Both the position numbers and the translations under genes were made by a program. Positions 15,917-22,670 of a DNA stretch of 64,000 bases are shown here, piece by piece. This stretch comes from Alphaproteobacteria bacterium. GTDB taxonomy: Bacteria; Pseudomonadota; Alphaproteobacteria; UBA828. Numbering within the stretch: position 1 is the first letter of the stretch; every line of letters starts with the position of its first letter. The stretch spans positions 704,001 through 768,000 of the forward strand of contig CBDCRW010000006.1 in NCBI GenBank assembly GCA_965221125.1, given 5' to 3'. A model generated the notes under the pieces. It had not been told where the DNA came from, searched no databases, and worked only from the letters and a program-made list of their open reading frames with translations.

Positions 15917-18109
15917 GTGATTCGAAATCTTGCCGCCGAGCTTCGCGCGGACATCCTGTCGGGGAAGGTCACGCCGGCGCTGTCGGCGGGTTTCACCTCG
16001 GGCCTCGGGCTGCTGGCCGCCCAGGTCGCCTTCGGAACCTTCATCTTCTCCGGCCCGCTGGCTCCCTACACGTCGCAGGGCGTGGGCCTGGTGCTGTTCG
16101 GAAACTTCGCCGCCTGTCTGCTCATCGCGCTTTCGAGCGGCTTTCGCGGCGCGATTTCAGGTCTGTCGCCCGCGCTCGTGATCGGGATGGCCGTCATCGG
16201 CTCCACCATGGCGGCCGAAGGCGAGGCGCTGTTCGTCACCACCGCGGCCGCGCTGATCATCGCCGCAGTCGCCACGGGCGCGTTCTGCCTCATGATCGGC
16301 CAGTTTCGTCTCGCCAACGTGGTGCGCTTCATTCCCTACCCCGTTGCGGGCGGGTTCGTCGCGGGAATCGGCGGCGCCGTCTGCATCGCGGCGCTCTCCA
16401 TGATGGGGGTCGATCCGCACTGGGCGGCGGTTCCGTCGTACTTCGACCCCGACGAGCTGTGGAAGTGGGCGCCGGGCACGGCCTACGGGCTGGCCCTCTA
16501 CCTGTCGATGAGGCGCTGGCGGCATCCGCTGATCCTGCCGGTGAGCGTCGTGGTCTTCGTCGGCGCGAGCCATCTCGCACTCTTCGCCCTCGGCATCAGC
16601 GGCGAGGAGGCGAGAGCTGCGGGGCTGCTGTTCACGAGCACGGTGGAGGACAGCCTGTGGCCGGCCCTATCGCCGGCCGACCTCGCGCACGTGGACTGGT
16701 CGGCGATGGCCGGGCGGGTCCCCGACATGCTGACGCTGATCCTGGTCGCCCTCATCTGCGTCGTCATGAACATCGCGGGCCTGGAGCTTGCGGTGAACAG
16801 CGAGTTCGACTGGGACCGGGAGTTCAGGGCCAAGGGCTTCGCGACCGTGATCTCCGGCCTGGGCGGCGGCACGGTGTCGACCCTGGTTGTGCCCGCCTCG
16901 CTGCGCAGCAAGCTGTTCGGCGCGACGACGCGGCTTACCGGCGTGATCGCCGCCCTCGTCATCGGCATCGCTCTGCTCCTGGGCGACGGGATGCTGGAGC
17001 TGGTGCCGGCGCCGCTCGTCGGCGGCATGCTGGTCTTTGCCGGCGCCGGCATGCTGGACGAAGGGCTGGTGAAGAGCTGGAAGCGCCTGCCCCGGCAGGA
17101 GTACGGCATCATCCTGCTGATCTTCGCGATCATCATAGGGCTCGGGCTGCTCGAGGGCGTAGCCGCCGGCATCGCGGCGACGCTCGTGCTCTTCGTCGTG
17201 CGCCTCGGCCGCGTGGACTCGGTCGAGGCGCGGTTCACCCTGCGCGAGCGCCAGAGCAACAAGGCACGGCCTGTCACCGATCACGCCATCCTGCTGGCGG
17301 AGGGTGACCGGGTGCTGGCCTATCGGCTGCGCGGCTACATCTTCTTCGGCAGCGTCGTCCCGCTGGCCAACCAGCTGCGCCAGACGCTGAGCGGTTCCTC
17401 GCCGCCGGCCTGCCTGATGCTGGACTTCGGCGGTGTCTCCGGCTTCGACTTCTCTGCGGTGAGCGTGCTCGGCCGGTTCCTGCAACGGGCCGACGCTGCC
17501 GGCGTTCGAGTGGTTCTGTGCGGAGTCTCCGAGCCGCTGCGGATGGGACTTGAGCGGACCCTGCCGTCAGCCGCGTTCTCCGAATTGCTGATGGAGCCCA
17601 ACGCGGATCGCGCGCTCGAGCGCTGCGAGGACATCGTCATCGCGGCCTGGAGAGCGGACGTGGACGCGGCGGGAGAGCGGCGCAAGGAAATACTGGAGCA
17701 CGCCGGCGAAGACATCGAGCGCTACCTGGACCGGCAGATCCAATTTGAGGACCTGATTGCGGACTTGCGAGAGTGGCTGCATCCGCGCGACTACGCCGCG
17801 GGCCAGCCCCTCGCCGGGCAGGATGCGCCGGACGAAGGCCTGCAGCTGCTGCTTTCCGGCCGGGCCTCGGCGTTCGACGATGCGGGCGCCAGGCTCTATC
17901 AGCTCGGGCCGGGCGATGCGGTGTGGCCGGCGGACGCGCTCGATTCGAACGCGAGCAGCGTGGTTGCCGACCGGCCCTGCCGGACCCTGGCGCTGGCGCC
18001 CGACACCCGGCGCTGGCTGGAATCGCAGCAAGAACAGCTCGCGTTCCGGCTCTATCGCTACCTGCTCTCCAGGCGCTTCGAGGCCGAGCCCGAAGATCGC
18101 TCCCTGTGA
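15917..18109 (+). CDS. SulP family anion transporter with STAS and degenerate cNMP-binding domains
   Basis: RFIPYPVAGGFVAGIG; STAS LRGYIFFG..LDFGGVSGFDFSA; C-terminal cNMP-like region; start uncertain (GTG 15917 has an AGGTG RBS). Confidence 0.85.
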   Translation: MIRNLAAELRADILSGKVTPALSAGFTSGLGLLAAQVAFGTFIFSGPLAPYTSQGVGLVLFGNFAACLLIALSSGFRGAISGLSPALVIGMAVIGSTMAAEGEALFVTTAAALIIAAVATGAFCLMIGQFRLANVVRFIPYPVAGGFVAGIGGAVCIAALSMMGVDPHWAAVPSYFDPDELWKWAPGTAYGLALYLSMRRWRHPLILPVSVVVFVGASHLALFALGISGEEARAAGLLFTSTVEDSLWPALSPADLAHVDWSAMAGRVPDMLTLILVALICVVMNIAGLELAVNSEFDWDREFRAKGFATVISGLGGGTVSTLVVPASLRSKLFGATTRLTGVIAALVIGIALLLGDGMLELVPAPLVGGMLVFAGAGMLDEGLVKSWKRLPRQEYGIILLIFAIIIGLGLLEGVAAGIAATLVLFVVRLGRVDSVEARFTLRERQSNKARPVTDHAILLAEGDRVLAYRLRGYIFFGSVVPLANQLRQTLSGSSPPACLMLDFGGVSGFDFSAVSVLGRFLQRADAAGVRVVLCGVSEPLRMGLERTLPSAAFSELLMEPNADRALERCEDIVIAAWRADVDAAGERRKEILEHAGEDIERYLDRQIQFEDLIADLREWLHPRDYAAGQPLAGQDAPDEGLQLLLSGRASAFDDAGARLYQLGPGDAVWPADALDSNASSVVADRPCRTLALAPDTRRWLESQQEQLAFRLYRYLLSRRFEAEPEDRSL

Positions 18110-18126
18110 CCACCGGCCGGCACCAG

Positions 18127-18143
18127 GCTTTCAACTGCACGTC
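18127..18143. repeat. Putative attL (GC core + half-site GCTTTCAACTGCACGTC)
   Basis: Matches the reverse complement of the right end (GCTTCATACTACACCTC) at 12/17 positions. Confidence 0.65.
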
Positions 18144-18169
18144 GTTCATGCGTTGAGCAGCAACGCTTT

Positions 18170-18478
18170 GTGGTGACGCACCCGTTTCATCCTCTTCTCG
18201 GACGTGAGTTCGAACTGATCGAGACCACGTCGATGCTTGGGGTGGGGCTGGTCCATTACACGGCTGACGACGGGACGCTGCGCACGATTCGTCAGGCTTT
18301 TACCAGCGTTGCAGCGGTGGATCCGTTTGCGCGGGTAGCGGCGGGCCGGTCGGCGTTCCGTGTCTCGGATCTGCTGACGTTGTCGGCGTTGCTGGATGGC
18401 TTGGGCGGCGGCGAGAGGGTTGGAAAGGAGGCGGCCGGCGGCGCGAGCGGTGTCAAGGAGATTTTGCCGCATGTGTAA
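18170..18478 (+). CDS. DUF5372 (Y4bD/Y4pK-like) protein; lacks a good start when integrated
   Basis: VTHPFHPLLGREFEL...DPF...AGRSAFRVSDLL.L; frame open back to the sulP stop at 18107-18109 with no ATG or RBS. Confidence 0.75.
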   Translation: MVTHPFHPLLGREFELIETTSMLGVGLVHYTADDGTLRTIRQAFTSVAAVDPFARVAAGRSAFRVSDLLTLSALLDGLGGGERVGKEAAGGASGVKEILPHV

Positions 18479-18660
18479 GAGCGTTTTTGTCCATACCTGG
18501 CGGTCGGAGGTTGTCGTATGGACTGGAAGGGCGGTCATGATCGACCAATATACACGGTATTTCGGCCTGTTTTCGTCGATATGGGGCAAGAAAGGGTTTG
18601 ATGCGATGCCAGGGGTGTGCATAAATATACTTACATTCCTCCGCCGCCGGAGCCCACGCA

Positions 18661-19122
18661 ATGGCCAGACGCCCCGCCGACGCCAAGACCCGCTCCCTCA
18701 AGGAGCACGGCTGCCTCAACCCGAACGCGGAGACGGTGCGCGACGAGCTGTTCCTGTCCAACGCGTTCTTCGACCCGCGCGACCTGGTCCAGGTCAGGTA
18801 CGAGATGCTGCGCCGTGTGCGCGAGGACGGCGTGCCGGTGAGCCACGCCGCGGCCAGCTTCGGCGTCTCGCGGCCCACCTGGTACCAGGCGCAGCGCGCC
18901 TACGATGCGGGCGGGCTGCCGGGCCTGCTGCCGGAGAAGCCGGGACCCCGCCGACGCCACAAGCTCAGCGACGAGGTGGTCGAGGCGCTGCTCGCGGCGA
19001 AGAGCGAACAGCCGGAGTTGACCGCCGCCGCGCTGGTCGATCTGGTGCGCGCGCGCTTTGGCATCACCATCCATCGCCGCAGCATCGGCCGCATGCTCGC
19101 GCAGGTAAAAAAAAGCCGATGA
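18661..19122 (+). CDS. Helix-turn-helix DNA-binding protein
   Basis: FFDPRDLVQVRYEMLR; HTH AAASFGVSRPTWYQ..GGLPGLLP; second HTH RFGITIHRRSIGR; GGAG RBS. Confidence 0.85.
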   Translation: MARRPADAKTRSLKEHGCLNPNAETVRDELFLSNAFFDPRDLVQVRYEMLRRVREDGVPVSHAAASFGVSRPTWYQAQRAYDAGGLPGLLPEKPGPRRRHKLSDEVVEALLAAKSEQPELTAAALVDLVRARFGITIHRRSIGRMLAQVKKSR

Positions 19123-19421
19123 AGTGCCGGCCGCCGCTCGCCGGGCTGCTCCCGCTGGAACATTCCGCCTATGGGGACGGCTACGAGCGGCTGCGCCGTC
19201 ATGCGGTCGAGCCCGGCACAGAGCACAACCGTCACGGGCTTGCCGTGGTGGCGTTGCGCGGCGTCGCGGCCTGGCTGCACGCCGTGGCCGAGTTGCCCGC
19301 CCCGCCGGCCGCCGTTTGCGCCGGCGCCTCGACCGAGCCGCTGCCCGGCGGGGTCGAGAAGTCGCTGATCGACATTCTTCTCGCGATGCTCAAGGGCCAT
19401 ATGGAAGGAGAGTTGGCATGA
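19119..19421 (+). CDS. Small hypothetical protein of the recombinase element (100 aa)
   Basis: YERLR...GLAVVALRGVAAWL; ATGA overlaps with both the HTH stop and the recombinase start. Confidence 0.7.
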   Translation: MKCRPPLAGLLPLEHSAYGDGYERLRRHAVEPGTEHNRHGLAVVALRGVAAWLHAVAELPAPPAAVCAGASTEPLPGGVEKSLIDILLAMLKGHMEGELA

Positions 19422-21493
19422 GCACTGCCTATCAGAAGGTGAGCGCGAACCACCTGAGCCGCGATGCTTACCTGTACGTGCGTCAGTCCACCGTGCGCCA
19501 GGTGTTCGAACATGGCGAGAGCACGCGCCGCCAGTACGCGCTGCGCGAGCGGGCCGTGGCCCTGGGCTGGCCGACCGAGAACGTCGTCGTGATCGATTGC
19601 GATCAGGGCCTGTCCGGCGCCGACAAGGACCGCGAAGGCTTCCAGCGTCTGGTCGCCGACGTCAGCTTGGGCCGGGCCGGGATCGTGCTCGGGCTCGAGG
19701 TGTCAAGGCTCGCGCGCAATTCCACCGAGTGGCATCGGCTGGTCGAGATCTGTGACCTGAGCGAGACGCTGATCCTCGACGAGGACGGCCTCTACAATCC
19801 AGGAGACTTCAACGACAGGCTCCTGCTCGGGCTCAAAGGGACCATGTCGGAAGCGGAGCTGCACATGATGCGCGCCCGGCTGCGCGGTGGGACGCTGAAC
19901 GCGGCCAAGCGTGGGGAGTTGAAGTTGCCGCTGCCGGTGGGACTGGTCTATGACCCGCTCGGCAACGTGGTGCTCGACCCCGACGAACAAGTGCAGCATA
20001 GCCTGCGCCTGTTCTTCGATACCTTCACCCGGCTCGGCTCGGCTAATGCCACGGTCAAGTATTTCAGGGCCGAGAACCTGCTTTTCCCCTACCGTCCTCT
20101 CCACGGGCCGCACAAGGGCGAGCTGCATTGGAAGCCGCTGAGGTTCGCGCGGGCACTGCGAGTGCTGCGCAATCCGCGATACGCCGGCGCTTACGCGTAC
20201 GGGCGCAGCCGCAGCCGGCGGCGTCCCGGCGGCGGTGTCGAGACCCAACGTCTGCCACGTGAGGAATGGATGGTGGAGCTGCGCGATGCGCACCCGGGCT
20301 ACATCACCTGGGAGCGGTTCGAACAGAACGAGAGCCAGCTTCGCGACAACAATGCTGCCCGAGCGCGCGGCGCGGAGCGCCGCCCTCCCCCACGCGAGGG
20401 GCCGGCACTGCTGCAGGGACTGGCTGTCTGCGGCGTGTGCGGCCGGAGCATGGGGGTGCGCTACTACAAGCAAAAATCAAAGGAGCTGCACCCCTACTAC
20501 CTGTGCAGCCATGAAGGTGCGCAGACGGCGAGCGCCTGGTGTCAGAGCATCCCCGGCGCTGCCATCGACCGCGCGGTCGGCGAGTTGCTGGTGGAGCTGA
20601 TGACGCCGTTGACGCTGGAGGTGGCGTTGCAGGTGCAGGACGAACTCACCGCGCGCGCCGAGGAGGCCGATCTGTGGCGCGCTCAGCGAGTGCAGCGCGC
20701 CCGCGAGGAAGCGGACCTGGCGCGGCAGAGGTTCATGCAGACCCATCCCGACAACCGGATAGTAGCCGACGTGCTGGAGGCGGAGTGGAACGCGAAGCTT
20801 CGGACGCTGGACGAGGCGCAGCGAGAGCTCGAGCGCAGCCGCGCGGATCCGGGCCAGGGGTTGGACGAAGGGCAACGCAAGCGAATCCTCGCGCTGGCCA
20901 GCGACTTCCCCCGCCTGTGGAACGATCCTGCGACGCCGCACCGCGAGCGCAAGCGGATGGCGCGGCTGCTGATCGAGGACGTGACGCTGACCAGGGCCAC
21001 GCGGAGCCTGGGGGTGCGTCTGCGCGGCGGCGCGACCCGCCAGCTCACCTGGGCGCCGGATCCTCTCGGATGTGAGACCTTCAAGACCAAGGCCGAGATC
21101 GTCGCCGAGGTCGACAGCCTGTTGAACGACCACAACTATGGCGAGATCGCCAAAATCCTCAACGAGCGCGGATACCGAAGCGGTTACGGCCACGCCTTTA
21201 CCCCGAAGTTGGTGGGGGTGCTGCGAGCGAACTACGCTCTCAAGCCACGCTATGAACGGCTGCGCGATCGCGGGCTGTTGACGGTCAACGAGGCCGCCGA
21301 GCGCCTCGCGGTCTCCGTCGGCACAGTCAACCAATGGCGCAAGGCCGGGCTCTTGCGCGGACACGCCTACACCGGCGGATCCGACTACTTGTACGAGATT
21401 CCCGACCCTCCGCCGACCAAACAACCGGGGCGAAAGCTGTCTCTGCGCAAACCGAGCTGCAACCTTGCCCCCACAGGAATAGATGAGGTGTAG
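19418..21493 (+). CDS. Large serine recombinase (691 aa) with C-terminal excisionase-like HTH
   Basis: Catalytic YVRQST, EVSRLARN, recombinase domain LRNPRYAG, Zn ribbon CGVCG..YLC..WC, coiled coil, terminal LLTVNEAAERLAVSVGTVNQWRKAG; GAAGGAG RBS. Confidence 0.95.
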   Translation: MSTAYQKVSANHLSRDAYLYVRQSTVRQVFEHGESTRRQYALRERAVALGWPTENVVVIDCDQGLSGADKDREGFQRLVADVSLGRAGIVLGLEVSRLARNSTEWHRLVEICDLSETLILDEDGLYNPGDFNDRLLLGLKGTMSEAELHMMRARLRGGTLNAAKRGELKLPLPVGLVYDPLGNVVLDPDEQVQHSLRLFFDTFTRLGSANATVKYFRAENLLFPYRPLHGPHKGELHWKPLRFARALRVLRNPRYAGAYAYGRSRSRRRPGGGVETQRLPREEWMVELRDAHPGYITWERFEQNESQLRDNNAARARGAERRPPPREGPALLQGLAVCGVCGRSMGVRYYKQKSKELHPYYLCSHEGAQTASAWCQSIPGAAIDRAVGELLVELMTPLTLEVALQVQDELTARAEEADLWRAQRVQRAREEADLARQRFMQTHPDNRIVADVLEAEWNAKLRTLDEAQRELERSRADPGQGLDEGQRKRILALASDFPRLWNDPATPHRERKRMARLLIEDVTLTRATRSLGVRLRGGATRQLTWAPDPLGCETFKTKAEIVAEVDSLLNDHNYGEIAKILNERGYRSGYGHAFTPKLVGVLRANYALKPRYERLRDRGLLTVNEAAERLAVSVGTVNQWRKAGLLRGHAYTGGSDYLYEIPDPPPTKQPGRKLSLRKPSCNLAPTGIDEV

Positions 21494-21501
21494 TATGAAG
21501 C
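21485..21501. repeat. Putative attR (half-site GAGGTGTAGTATGAA + GC core), containing the recombinase stop, an SD and an outward-facing ATG
   Basis: Inverted match to the left end; GAGGTG followed by ATG at 21495. Confidence 0.65.
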
Positions 21502-21537
21502 GTACTCTCGGTTCCCGAGCGGATATTCCGTCACGGT

Positions 21538-21565
21538 TTGACCGCCGGGGCCGGCTGCCTATCAT
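21538..21565 (+). promoter_or_regulatory. Sigma70-like promoter for the SDR gene
   Basis: TTGACC-N16-TATCAT. Confidence 0.55.
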
Positions 21566-21614
21566 GCGCGCCGTCCGGGCGCAGCCCGCGGCAGAGCAAT
21601 GAGGAGATCAGGGA

Positions 21615-22670
21615 ATGGCGAAGGGTAAGGCGGTCGTCGTCGGCGGCCTCGGTATGATCGGGCGCAACATCATCCAGGCACTCGAGGCCGAAGGCGGGTG
21701 GGACATCGTCGGGCTGTCGCGCAGGCCGGCGAACTTCGAGACCGGGGCCACCTTCATCTCCGTCGACCTGCTGGACGAGGGCCAAGCGAGGGAGAAGCTC
21801 GCGAGCCTCACCGACGTCACCCACATCTTCTATGCCGGCCTCTCCGGCGGCGTCGAGGCCGAGAACGTCGAGGGCAACCTCGCGCTCGTGGTCAACTCCG
21901 TCGGCGTGATCGAGCCCGTCTCGCCCACGCTGGAGCGCGTGATCCTGGTGCAGGGCGGCAAGTACTACGGCGTCCACCTGGGCCCGCACAAGACGCCGTC
22001 GAAGGAGACCGACCCGCGCCACCTGCCGCCCAACTTCTATTACAACCAGCAGGATTTCATCACCGACCTGCAGCAGGGCAAGTCCTGGCACTACACCATG
22101 CTGCGGCCCGAGGCCGTGGTCGGCTTCGCCGAGGGTATCCCGCTCAACACCGCCTCGCTCGTCGCGGTCTATGCCTCCGTGTGCAAGGAGATGGACGTGC
22201 CGCTGAACTATCCGGGGCCGGAGGCGGCGTTCACGGCCTTCAACAAGTTCGTCGACGCCAGGCTGCTCGGCCGCTGCGCCGCCTGGGCGGCGCAGAACCC
22301 CGCCTGCGCCGGCGAGGCCTTCAACGTGACCAACGCGTCAGGCATGCGCTGGTGCAACCTGTGGCCGCTCTTCACCGCGTATTTCGGCTGCCGGCCGGGG
22401 GTGCTGGTGCCGATGAAGCTCGCGGACTTCATGGCCGACAAGGGCCCGGTGTGGGACGAGATCGCGCGCAAGCACCAGCTCAAGGGCATGGCGTTCTCGG
22501 ACCTCGGCGACTGGGGCTTCGCCGACTGGAACTTCGGCCGAACCTGGGACACCATCCTGGAGGACACCAAGCGGCTCCAGTACGGCTTCACCGAAGCCAT
22601 CGACACCGACCAGAACTTCATCGAGATTTTCGACGACATGCGCGCCGCCCGGGTCATCCCGGCGGGCTGA
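21615..22670 (+). CDS. SDR oxidoreductase, PRISE (progesterone 5-beta-reductase/iridoid synthase-like) type
   Basis: VVVGGLGMIG, GLSRR, THIFY, QGGKYYG, PNFYYNQ, MLRP. Confidence 0.85.
   Translation: MAKGKAVVVGGLGMIGRNIIQALEAEGGWDIVGLSRRPANFETGATFISVDLLDEGQAREKLASLTDVTHIFYAGLSGGVEAENVEGNLALVVNSVGVIEPVSPTLERVILVQGGKYYGVHLGPHKTPSKETDPRHLPPNFYYNQQDFITDLQQGKSWHYTMLRPEAVVGFAEGIPLNTASLVAVYASVCKEMDVPLNYPGPEAAFTAFNKFVDARLLGRCAAWAAQNPACAGEAFNVTNASGMRWCNLWPLFTAYFGCRPGVLVPMKLADFMADKGPVWDEIARKHQLKGMAFSDLGDWGFADWNFGRTWDTILEDTKRLQYGFTEAIDTDQNFIEIFDDMRAARVIPAG

Follow-up and report, generated by a model that had tools for sequence, protein, structure and literature searches.

The 64,000-nucleotide stretch analysed here (the window: contig CBDCRW010000006.1 of assembly GCA_965221125.1, an alphaproteobacterium, positions 704,001 to 768,000 of the forward strand, renumbered below from its first letter) contains a mobile element that encodes a large serine recombinase (LSR) and carries one further gene divided between its two ends. 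The body of this gene, which specifies a DUF5372 domain, lies at the left end of the integrated element. A Shine-Dalgarno sequence, a start codon and the first five codons lie at the right end, directly behind the recombinase gene, and face outward. The same layout recurs in elements from many bacterial phyla. In our opinion, these features probably reflect a gene that is complete only in the joined or excised form of the element and whose product acts as a cofactor of the recombinase in the excised state.

Element ends and crossover site

The genome carries three copies of the element that are 100% identical. When the copies are aligned by their interiors, all three share exactly 18118..21510 and diverge directly outside this interval, with CG at both ends, so that the element measures 3391 bp (between the CG dinucleotides, or including one of them). 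For two of the three copies, related genomes retain empty sites that consist of the left flank, CG and the right flank: the empty site of the L003 copy is present in L118, with 99%-identical flanks, and also in L119 and L120, while that of the L002 copy is present in the relative L123. Moreover, near-identical elements at other locations are present on contigs of three metagenome runs, and these contigs break off at 18118 and at 21507/21510. The same dinucleotide thus occurs at both junctions and in a single copy in the empty site, with no longer target duplication, as is characteristic of LSR elements; the ends look as expected after exchange by a serine recombinase at a 2-bp CG crossover. 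The presence of three copies at unrelated sites, together with the empty sites in relatives, indicates that the element is mobile.

An earlier sequence-only reading of the window had placed the ends slightly further inside. The strings on which it relied are where it put them (GCTTTCAACTGCACGTC at 18127-18143 after 'cag', and GAGGTGTAGTATGAAGC at 21485-21501 before 'gta'), and they are indeed inverted half-sites, the reverse complement of the left string matching the right one at 12/17 positions on recounting. From their common GC (AAGC/GCTT; 18127-28 and 21500-01) that reading had derived a GC crossover, a circle of 3373 bp and a DUF5372 protein of 118 aa. The inverted repeat and the common GC are real, but the three copies share 8 further bases on the left and 10 further bases on the right, and the true crossover, according to copies and empty sites alike, is the CG at 18118-19 and 21509-10. 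The GC belongs to the half-sites, 8 to 10 bp in from each end; C24 is partly conserved in both arms (30/38 and 29/38 of the distinct end pairs described below). The empty-site sequence predicted from the GC crossover contains element DNA that is absent from the real empty sites, and the predicted circle sequence is likewise superseded. The sequence-only reading had itself named differing boundaries in empty sites as grounds for rejection, and such boundaries are what the empty sites show; we attach virtually no probability to its literal version.

It should be noted that, for the window copy itself, no orthologous empty site was found in nine same-genus relatives, in which the neighbourhood differs. 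In these nine genomes the right flank can be aligned only from 21534 onward, and the SulP/STAS/cNMP-binding gene does not lie beside the epimerase-like gene. The region left of the element (17700-18117) may itself be an insertion or a rearrangement.

The reading frame created by joining the ends

When the ends are joined at CG, the ATG at 21495 lies 1 nt past the recombinase stop codon TAG and 6 nt past GAGG, and it opens a frame that runs through 21495-21509, a codon composed of 21510 and 18120-18121, and 18122-18475 without a stop, for a total of 124 aa. The right end supplies the Shine-Dalgarno sequence, the start and five codons; the left end holds the remaining 118 full codons. The central claim of the sequence-only reading, that a Shine-Dalgarno sequence and a start codon come to lie in frame with DUF5372, straight after the recombinase stop, once the ends are joined, therefore holds with the corrected ends, with 124 aa in place of 118. 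It survived because the misplaced junction omits 18 nt (10 on the right, 8 on the left), that is, exactly six codons. Also confirmed is the statement that in the integrated state no in-frame ATG precedes DUF5372 as far back as the sulP stop; over this stretch the frame is open, and its first GTG codons are at 18170 and 18173. Reading of the window revealed no Shine-Dalgarno sequence within ~10 nt upstream of the GTG.

The features of the integrated element are as follows.

18118..18119, + strand: CG, left crossover dinucleotide (attL core); first base pairs common to the three genomic copies, and a single CG in the empty sites of relatives
18120..18172, + strand: left arm; half-site (TCA + ACTGCAC at 18131-18140) and also codons 6-23 of the joined DUF5372 frame
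18173..18478, + strand: DUF5372 domain (V-THPFHP... to TAA 18476-18478), body of the split gene; Pfam PF17342, E 6.1e-21
18661..19122, + strand: helix-turn-helix (HTH) protein, 153 aa, first operon gene; Pfam HTH_32, HTH_23, HTH_28
19119..19421, + strand: small open reading frame (ORF), 100 aa; ATGA overlaps with both neighbours
19418..21493, + strand: large serine recombinase, 691 aa; Pfam Resolvase, Recombinase, Zn_ribbon_recom, HTH_17
21485..21494, + strand: GAGG Shine-Dalgarno sequence (21485-21488), overlapping the right half-site core GTGTAGT (21488-21494); recombinase stop TAG at 21491-21493
21495..21508, + strand: ATG and first codons (MKRT, then two bases of the fifth codon, L), outward-facing; start of the joined DUF5372 frame
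21509..21510, + strand: CG, right crossover dinucleotide (attR core); last base pairs common to the three copies, in agreement with the empty sites

The recombinase ORF is whole in the integrated copy; only DUF5372 spans the recombination site.

Conservation of the junction

The first line of evidence for the biological significance of the split layout is its conservation in two sets of loci. The genome set consists of 62 loci from a DUF5372 alignment scan of the genome collection, together with four same-genus families; a recombinase search in 60 relatives had revealed multi-copy families in this genus. The 62 loci belong to Alpha-, Gamma- and Betaproteobacteria, Chloroflexota, Acidobacteriota, Gemmatimonadota, Actinomycetota, Planctomycetota and others. 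Five of them were left out, L065, L101 and L105 for want of a full N-terminal match and L092 and L099 for want of the left motif, and the left end was located in 61 loci of the set. The metagenome set, from an independent scan, consists of 80 loci, of which 28 have a complete recombinase; two of those 28 lack the anchor by which start codons were counted, an anchor that leaves the start position itself free.

Wherever the contig is long enough, the recombinase of the genome loci begins ~1.2 kb downstream of DUF5372. All 45 genome loci with a complete recombinase (41 of the 62 and the four same-genus families) have ATG (38) or GTG (7) at the joined start. The dinucleotide 14 nt downstream of this start is the one predicted from the left end in 42/44 loci, and all 42 loci caught by a first, stricter pattern have a joined frame that is in phase and free of stops. 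Without duplicates, these genome loci amount to 38 distinct end pairs and 35 distinct joined peptides. Two of the loci, L068 (3333 bp) and L102 (3325 bp), are short contigs that start and end with the TT dinucleotide, i.e., each is a bare element. The metagenome loci agree with the genome set: ATG occupies the joined start in 25/26, the dinucleotides are equal in 24/26, and the joined frame is open and in phase in 26/26. For both sets together, 68/68 joined frames are open and in phase. The recurrence of this geometry with ATG or GTG at the start in 45/45 genome and 25/26 metagenome loci exceeds chance. From the half-site motif to the codon preceding THPFHP (hereafter the V codon) the distance is usually 42 nt, and three lineages have 39, 45 or 48 nt. 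Completion of the gene by joining of the ends is strongly supported by this comparative evidence.

The geometry is most easily followed in the same-genus families. Their right end reads GAGGTG, 4 bases, ATG, 11 bases and the dinucleotide, and their left end reads the same dinucleotide, 11 bases and TCAACTGCAC. The end geometry of G008, G009 and G011, whose recombinases are 84%, 76% and 72% identical to that of the window, matches the window element, and the spacing is identical in all four families. Their dinucleotides are CG, AC, TT and CG, equal at both ends of each element. On sequence comparison, the junction layout is shown only for recombinases at least ~52% identical to that of the window. 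Further multi-copy LSR families of the same genus, with up to ~10 copies, are those of G009 (L030-L032), G005 (L040-L042) and G013 (L037-L039), at 46%, 36% and 38% identity. An ORF upstream in G005 carries a THPFHP-like 'WHPW' motif.

In a few elements the end dinucleotides differ within one copy (left/right): L053 and L055, from one genome with six copies, and L135, with TT/CG, CT/CG and AC/GC, respectively. Unequal ends of this kind would fit an exchange between different copies.

Where translation of DUF5372 can start

The second line of evidence is the scarcity of start codons inside the integrated element. From THPFHP onward, third codon positions vary among the genome loci and the first two do not, which indicates that THPFHP is translated. 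The V codon is GTA, GTC, GTT, ATC, ATA or ATT in 20/61 genome and 55/76 metagenome loci; judged by this variation, it behaves as an internal Val/Ile codon. Between the left end and the V codon, 42/61 genome and 73/76 metagenome loci have no in-frame ATG, GTG or TTG. Moreover, a canonical in-frame start within the element, up to and including the V codon, is lacking in 17/60 genome and 52/73 metagenome elements, and in these the next in-frame start lies at least 7 codons past the V codon, beyond the invariant motif. Two codons before the V codon the second base is an invariant T, so that the residue is always hydrophobic and coding appears to extend upstream of V. The left-arm frame has no stop in 60/61 loci.

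These data bear directly on the alternative that DUF5372 is an ordinary gene, translated in the integrated state from GTG 18170/18173 or from a non-canonical start, with the features of the ends reflecting the needs of the half-sites. Such a gene is compatible with the window copy, in which both codons are GTG, and with the 41/61 genome loci that have GTG at the V codon, where a start in the integrated state is possible too. Another in-frame ATG, GTG or TTG is present upstream in 19/61 genome loci, and some of these starts have been called (MEKQRF...). RefSeq starts the DUF5372 gene of plasmid pNGR234a at an internal GTG, and most DUF5372 database entries begin MTHPFHP, i.e., at the V codon. 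The alternative left-arm frame f2 is also mostly stop-free, so openness of the frame proves little by itself. Finally, codon periodicity is weak in the peptide that links the half-site to THPFHP (entropy 1.30, 1.26 and 1.42 at the three positions); for this reason periodicity upstream of THPFHP, save for the last four codons, was discounted as evidence of coding. Against an ordinary gene stand the Val/Ile codons that cannot serve as starts, the elements that lack any canonical start at or before the V codon, the invariant T that places coding upstream of this codon, and the lack of a Shine-Dalgarno sequence near the window GTGs. The properties of the right end, described in the next section, argue in the same direction, and on balance we consider the ordinary-gene explanation unlikely, while regarding it as the most serious competitor of a gene completed by joining.

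Existing annotation should be read with this in mind. The window's own DUF5372 gene is called as an 81-aa fragment from an internal ATG (P0010), and of the database entries compared (P0010, P0001, P0004, P0011, P0013) some start at an internal Met (81 aa), others at the V codon (101 aa) and others again in the host flank (up to 175 aa). The start calls of DUF5372 are probably a family-wide annotation artefact; gene callers cannot read across the ends of an element.

A probable translation signal overlapping the recombinase binding site

The third line of evidence is the asymmetry of the two arms. The core GTGCAGT (its reverse complement on the left) lies 14 nt from the crossover in 38/38 distinct end pairs, and because both arms share it at equal distance, part of the conservation of the ends belongs to the recombinase site. 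The conservation of the translation signals has a different distribution. GAG before the core has entropies of 0.56/0.63/0.30 in the right arm versus 1.56/1.09/1.50 in the left arm. The RTG start has right-arm entropies of 0.63/0/0; its counterpart on the left is a serine codon, TCA or TCG, in 35/38 pairs. For the AA that follows the start, the values are 0.59/0.47 on the right versus 1.69/1.86 on the left. GAG, RTG and AA are thus conserved on the right arm only, and the shared half-site GTGCAGT does not explain them. Coding for the recombinase is not the explanation either, since the right-end motif is kept in 6/38 distinct right ends in which the recombinase ORF stops 20 to 72 nt upstream.

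The position of the recombinase stop relative to the joined start is also informative. The two overlap as RTGA in 22/38 distinct right ends; the stop lies 8 nt after the joined start in 6/38, and the recombinase ends 1 nt before the start in 3/38. The RTGA overlap resembles the ATGA coupling of the window's two upstream gene junctions, at which the HTH gene, the small ORF and the recombinase gene are joined. This overlap and the one-sided conservation speak against an ordinary gene translated in the integrated state; in its favour, the Shine-Dalgarno sequence and the start overlap the half-site core.

DUF5372 protein and its predicted contact with the recombinase

The DUF5372 profile matches the window with 74.7 bits against a cut-off of 25, over positions 1-77 of 78, beginning at codon 18173. 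HMMER finds 1241 cluster representatives of the family at E <= 0.001. A further match, the 2691-aa ankyrin-repeat protein P0122 (E 3e-34 through 15 repeated stretches), was set aside as a spurious, repeat-driven profile match. The AlphaFold2 model of DUF5372, built with 79 sequences, is a small beta-barrel followed by helices, with a mean predicted local distance difference test (pLDDT) of 82.5. Foldseek comparison of this model with the PDB gave 0 matches at E <= 0.001; the best match, ribosomal protein eS4 (E 3e-3, TM 0.36), is uninformative.

The recombinase shows the domains PF00239 (E 2.6e-20), PF07508 (1.1e-14) and PF13408 (1.5e-09) within 19418-21493, and at its C-terminus an excisionase-type HTH, matched by TIGR01764 over residues 620-654 just under the cut-off. 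Among PDB sequences it has weak matches to the SPbeta integrase YokA. In its AlphaFold2 model (mean pLDDT 76.5), antiparallel helices 397-441 and 447-475 follow the zinc-ribbon strands 336-379; as modelled, the recombinase has a coiled coil of the LSR type inserted in the second DNA-binding domain (DBD2).

The modelled complex of DUF5372 and the recombinase reached an ipSAE of 0.73, 0.73 and 0.71, against 0.00 for the best of three controls; solved complexes of integrases with recombination directionality factors (RDFs) exist, and some of the score could stem from the model's memory of that site. The ipSAE mark applied is reached by 58/80 solved complexes and by 2/110 mismatched pairs, a calibration that is rough here, where custom alignments were used. 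At least 84% of contacts agree between the runs, and partner pLDDT is at least 67. On the recombinase side the predicted interface comprises residues 337-344, 394-413 and 482-540, which correspond to the zinc-ribbon domain and the coiled-coil base; on the DUF5372 side it comprises the invariant HPFHP and GRSAFR..DLL motifs. According to these models, DUF5372 most likely binds the recombinase at the junction of DBD2 and the coiled coil, where directionality factors bind. The suggestion of a directionality switch, made in the sequence-only reading, gains a lead from this predicted position.

The protein also bears on the idea that the right-end Shine-Dalgarno sequence and ATG merely translate into the flank or make a short peptide, DUF5372 itself being a decaying remnant. 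In the integrated window copy the ATG at 21495 does open a 35-codon ORF into the flank. Flanks differ at every insertion, however, and a decaying remnant is hard to reconcile with strong purifying selection on DUF5372 across phyla, with the size of the family given above, or with invariant motifs that form the predicted recombinase interface. We regard this explanation as highly improbable.

Proposed mechanism

The window element is a 3391-bp LSR element resembling an insertion sequence (IS), and its attachment site (attP, crossover CG) lies inside the 5' end of the DUF5372 gene. In the mechanism that we favour, excision by the recombinase would join the ends and complete the 124-codon gene, and the operon transcript would then run from the recombinase gene across attP into DUF5372. 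DUF5372 would thereby become the fourth, translationally coupled gene of an operon of HTH protein, small ORF and recombinase, made 1:1 with the enzyme, until integration split it again. Bound to the DBD2/coiled-coil junction, the protein would signal that the element is out of the chromosome. Both the formation of a circle and the restriction of translation to it are inferred from the layout.

As to the consequence of binding, the cofactor may favour re-insertion or prevent the back reaction. We favour re-insertion, because a classical excision factor that is made only after excision makes little sense, while an effect in either direction is possible. The HTH protein and the 100-aa ORF would be candidates for the excision side. 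A more specific model, offered tentatively and in our estimate more doubtful than likely, is that DUF5372 is a 'reverse' directionality factor and its gene a topological sensor: the protein would license insertion of the circle or block the back reaction, the DUF5372-free recombinase of integrated copies could only excise, and integration would reset the switch.

If the mechanism is correct, the element senses whether it is in or out of the chromosome without a regulator, by means of a cofactor gene that exists only when the element is excised, and DUF5372, a family without a published function, acquires a testable one. LSRs and directionality factors are tools of genome engineering, and the element could provide a new multi-target recombinase with a stoichiometric cofactor. 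A 'reverse' directionality factor, if real, would give serine-recombinase transposons a complete and self-contained control of direction, conserved from Proteobacteria to Actinomycetota and Acidobacteriota.

Contrary evidence and the form of the joined element

A number of further observations speak against the gene being completed by excision, or reduce the force of the evidence given above. With regard to conservation, the metagenome locus L145 has CGC at the start position, behind a poor anchor, and two metagenome loci lack the anchor altogether. The in-frame spacings are not independent across loci that share one att geometry; in effect there are ~3 changes of length (39, 45 and 48 nt). 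An out-of-frame spacing of 41 nt occurs in L077, which also has a stop, and in 3/76 metagenome loci. Among the more distant same-genus families no clear ends were found for G009b, G005 and G013: G009b (recombinase 46% identical) has DUF5372 with a 48-nt spacing and a right end that could not be defined, and G005 (36%) and G013 (38%) gave no tblastn match to DUF5372 and have ends without a common dinucleotide. With regard to the right end, the start signals overlap the recombinase binding site, and asymmetric DNA recognition could explain part of their conservation. The complex of DUF5372 and the recombinase is a model, not a measurement, and the usual logic of excision leaves little room for a canonical RDF whose synthesis has to await excision.

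Joined forms were also sought directly. The read-level check covered the assembled contigs of four runs (X1, X5, X6 and X7), and assemblies drop rare forms; within these contigs neither joined-end (circle) DNA nor a skip of the element (empty site) was seen. Eight rearranged joints in the run contigs are internal to the element and look like repeat artefacts. A search of the 80 metagenome loci for the joined form gave 2 weak motif matches upstream of DUF5372, none at the expected place. Among the 24 sequencing runs listed, no RNA run contains the element, and viral contigs contained no DUF5372 relative.

Any joining of the ends rebuilds the same ORF. Circles and tandem dimers look alike in the comparative data, and the complete gene might form mainly in head-to-tail tandems or in a replicating, plasmid-like form rather than in a transient circle. 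No tandem was found in the three genomic copies, in the genome loci or in the 80 metagenome loci, and Pfam and NCBIfam reveal no replication gene among the four ORFs of the element. A transient circle remains our preferred form; tandems and plasmids seem to us improbable.

Relationship to known systems

The closest described relatives are the gene sets y4bA-y4bD and y4pH-y4pK of plasmid pNGR234a (Sinorhizobium fredii NGR234), which match the window element gene for gene: DUF5372 comes first, then HTH, then a small ORF annotated 'transposase', and last the recombinase. Their end geometry is the same too: the crossover is TT, the start position has GTG with ATG behind it, and the joined frame is in phase and free of stops. 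Their DUF5372 protein, named 'DUF5372 family protein' and 'Y4bD/Y4pK family protein' in RefSeq, is only ~45% identical to that of the window, and their small ORF, of similar size and place to the 100-aa ORF, is likened to it by position and not by protein sequence. Within the literature searched, no paper mentions DUF5372 and none analyses y4bA, y4pH, y4bD or y4pK. Nor did that literature yield a case in which an accessory gene of a serine-recombinase element receives its start codon and ribosome-binding site from across the junction. The split-gene layout seems previously undescribed.

Junction promoters are known from the circles of IS911, IS30 and IS110-family elements, and Tn4451/Tn4453, which encode the large resolvase TnpX, reportedly have one too. 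State-dependent junction promoters of excised elements, Pcirc of ICEclc and P3'end of ICEKp1, are described in PMC13023037. In all of these, as would be the case in the window element, joining of the ends creates state-dependent expression, and Tn4451 is likewise moved by an LSR. However, a junction promoter is assembled at, or brought upstream of, an intact gene, whereas in the window element the coding sequence itself is split. A split coding sequence is found in the archaeal pTN3/SSV1 type, where, according to PMC5495485, attP divides the integrase gene. There too, a gene that spans attP is broken by integration and restored by excision; the difference is that the archaeal gene encodes the tyrosine integrase itself, whereas in the window the serine recombinase is intact and a small accessory protein is split near its start.

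Two other systems place signals of gene expression at a recombination site. In sib retroregulation of phage lambda int, the position of att decides which signals lie beside the gene in the integrated and the free state. In integrons, ORF-11 of attI1 supplies translation initiation to cassette genes that lack it. The former acts through mRNA decay, and the latter starts incoming cassettes, not a split gene of the element itself, as in the window.

With regard to directionality factors, two sources (PMC12286644; 10.1101/2025.01.03.631226) describe structurally unrelated RDFs that are predicted to bind LSR DBD2 at or near the coiled-coil junction. Like the RDFs of LSRs (SprB/YotN of SPbeta, gp47 of Bxb1, gp3 of phiC31), DUF5372 is small and element-encoded and has its predicted site at DBD2 and the coiled coil, but it has no similarity of fold or sequence to them. 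Moreover, known RDFs are made in the integrated state and trigger excision, whereas DUF5372 could be made only after excision.

Neighbouring genes and signals of the integrated element

The four plus-strand ORFs of the element lie between the 3' end of the SulP/STAS gene (stop TGA 18107-18109) and the epimerase-like gene, which begins at 21615. The HTH protein has a below-cut-off resemblance to the N-terminal DNA-binding parts of IS630 and IS481 transposases (Pfam/NCBIfam), and the 100-aa ORF matches no Pfam or NCBIfam family. A sigma-70 scan of the integrated element revealed no promoter-like site inside it. A terminator-like hairpin at 18150-18166 was discounted, being 1 of 4 found where 2.3 were expected, and by eye it is missing in relatives. 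The outward ORF that begins with the Shine-Dalgarno sequence and ATG 21495 ends at TGA 21600-21602 and crosses the only sigma-70-like site of the region (21538-21565), which lies upstream of the epimerase-like gene.

Insertion targets

In at least nine loci from Actinomycetota-like and Burkholderia-like sources (L082, L087, L091, L093, L094, L095, L096, L098 and L104), the reconstructed target site, read on its opposite strand, carries the codons of a D-N-A-x-x-E motif behind one variable residue (Y, W, F or L), with D-K-G as the exception in L087. The Asn codon contains the crossover, at its AA. In 4/4 target loci tested, the flanking ORF is a transposase with rve (integrase core) and HTH_21 domains. 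These elements seem to home, in antisense orientation, into the most conserved motif of IS3-like transposase genes. Insertion of many elements in transposase genes of other ISs would make them parasites of other mobile elements.

Another repeated gene is the target in sponge-associated alphaproteobacteria (L025-L027, L033-L035, L053-L055 and L075) and in run X6 at 21507, where several copies of the element occupy paralogues of that gene. The flanks of these insertions are similar, with ...GCCGGCGG.. on one side and ..CTCGGCGTA.. on the other.

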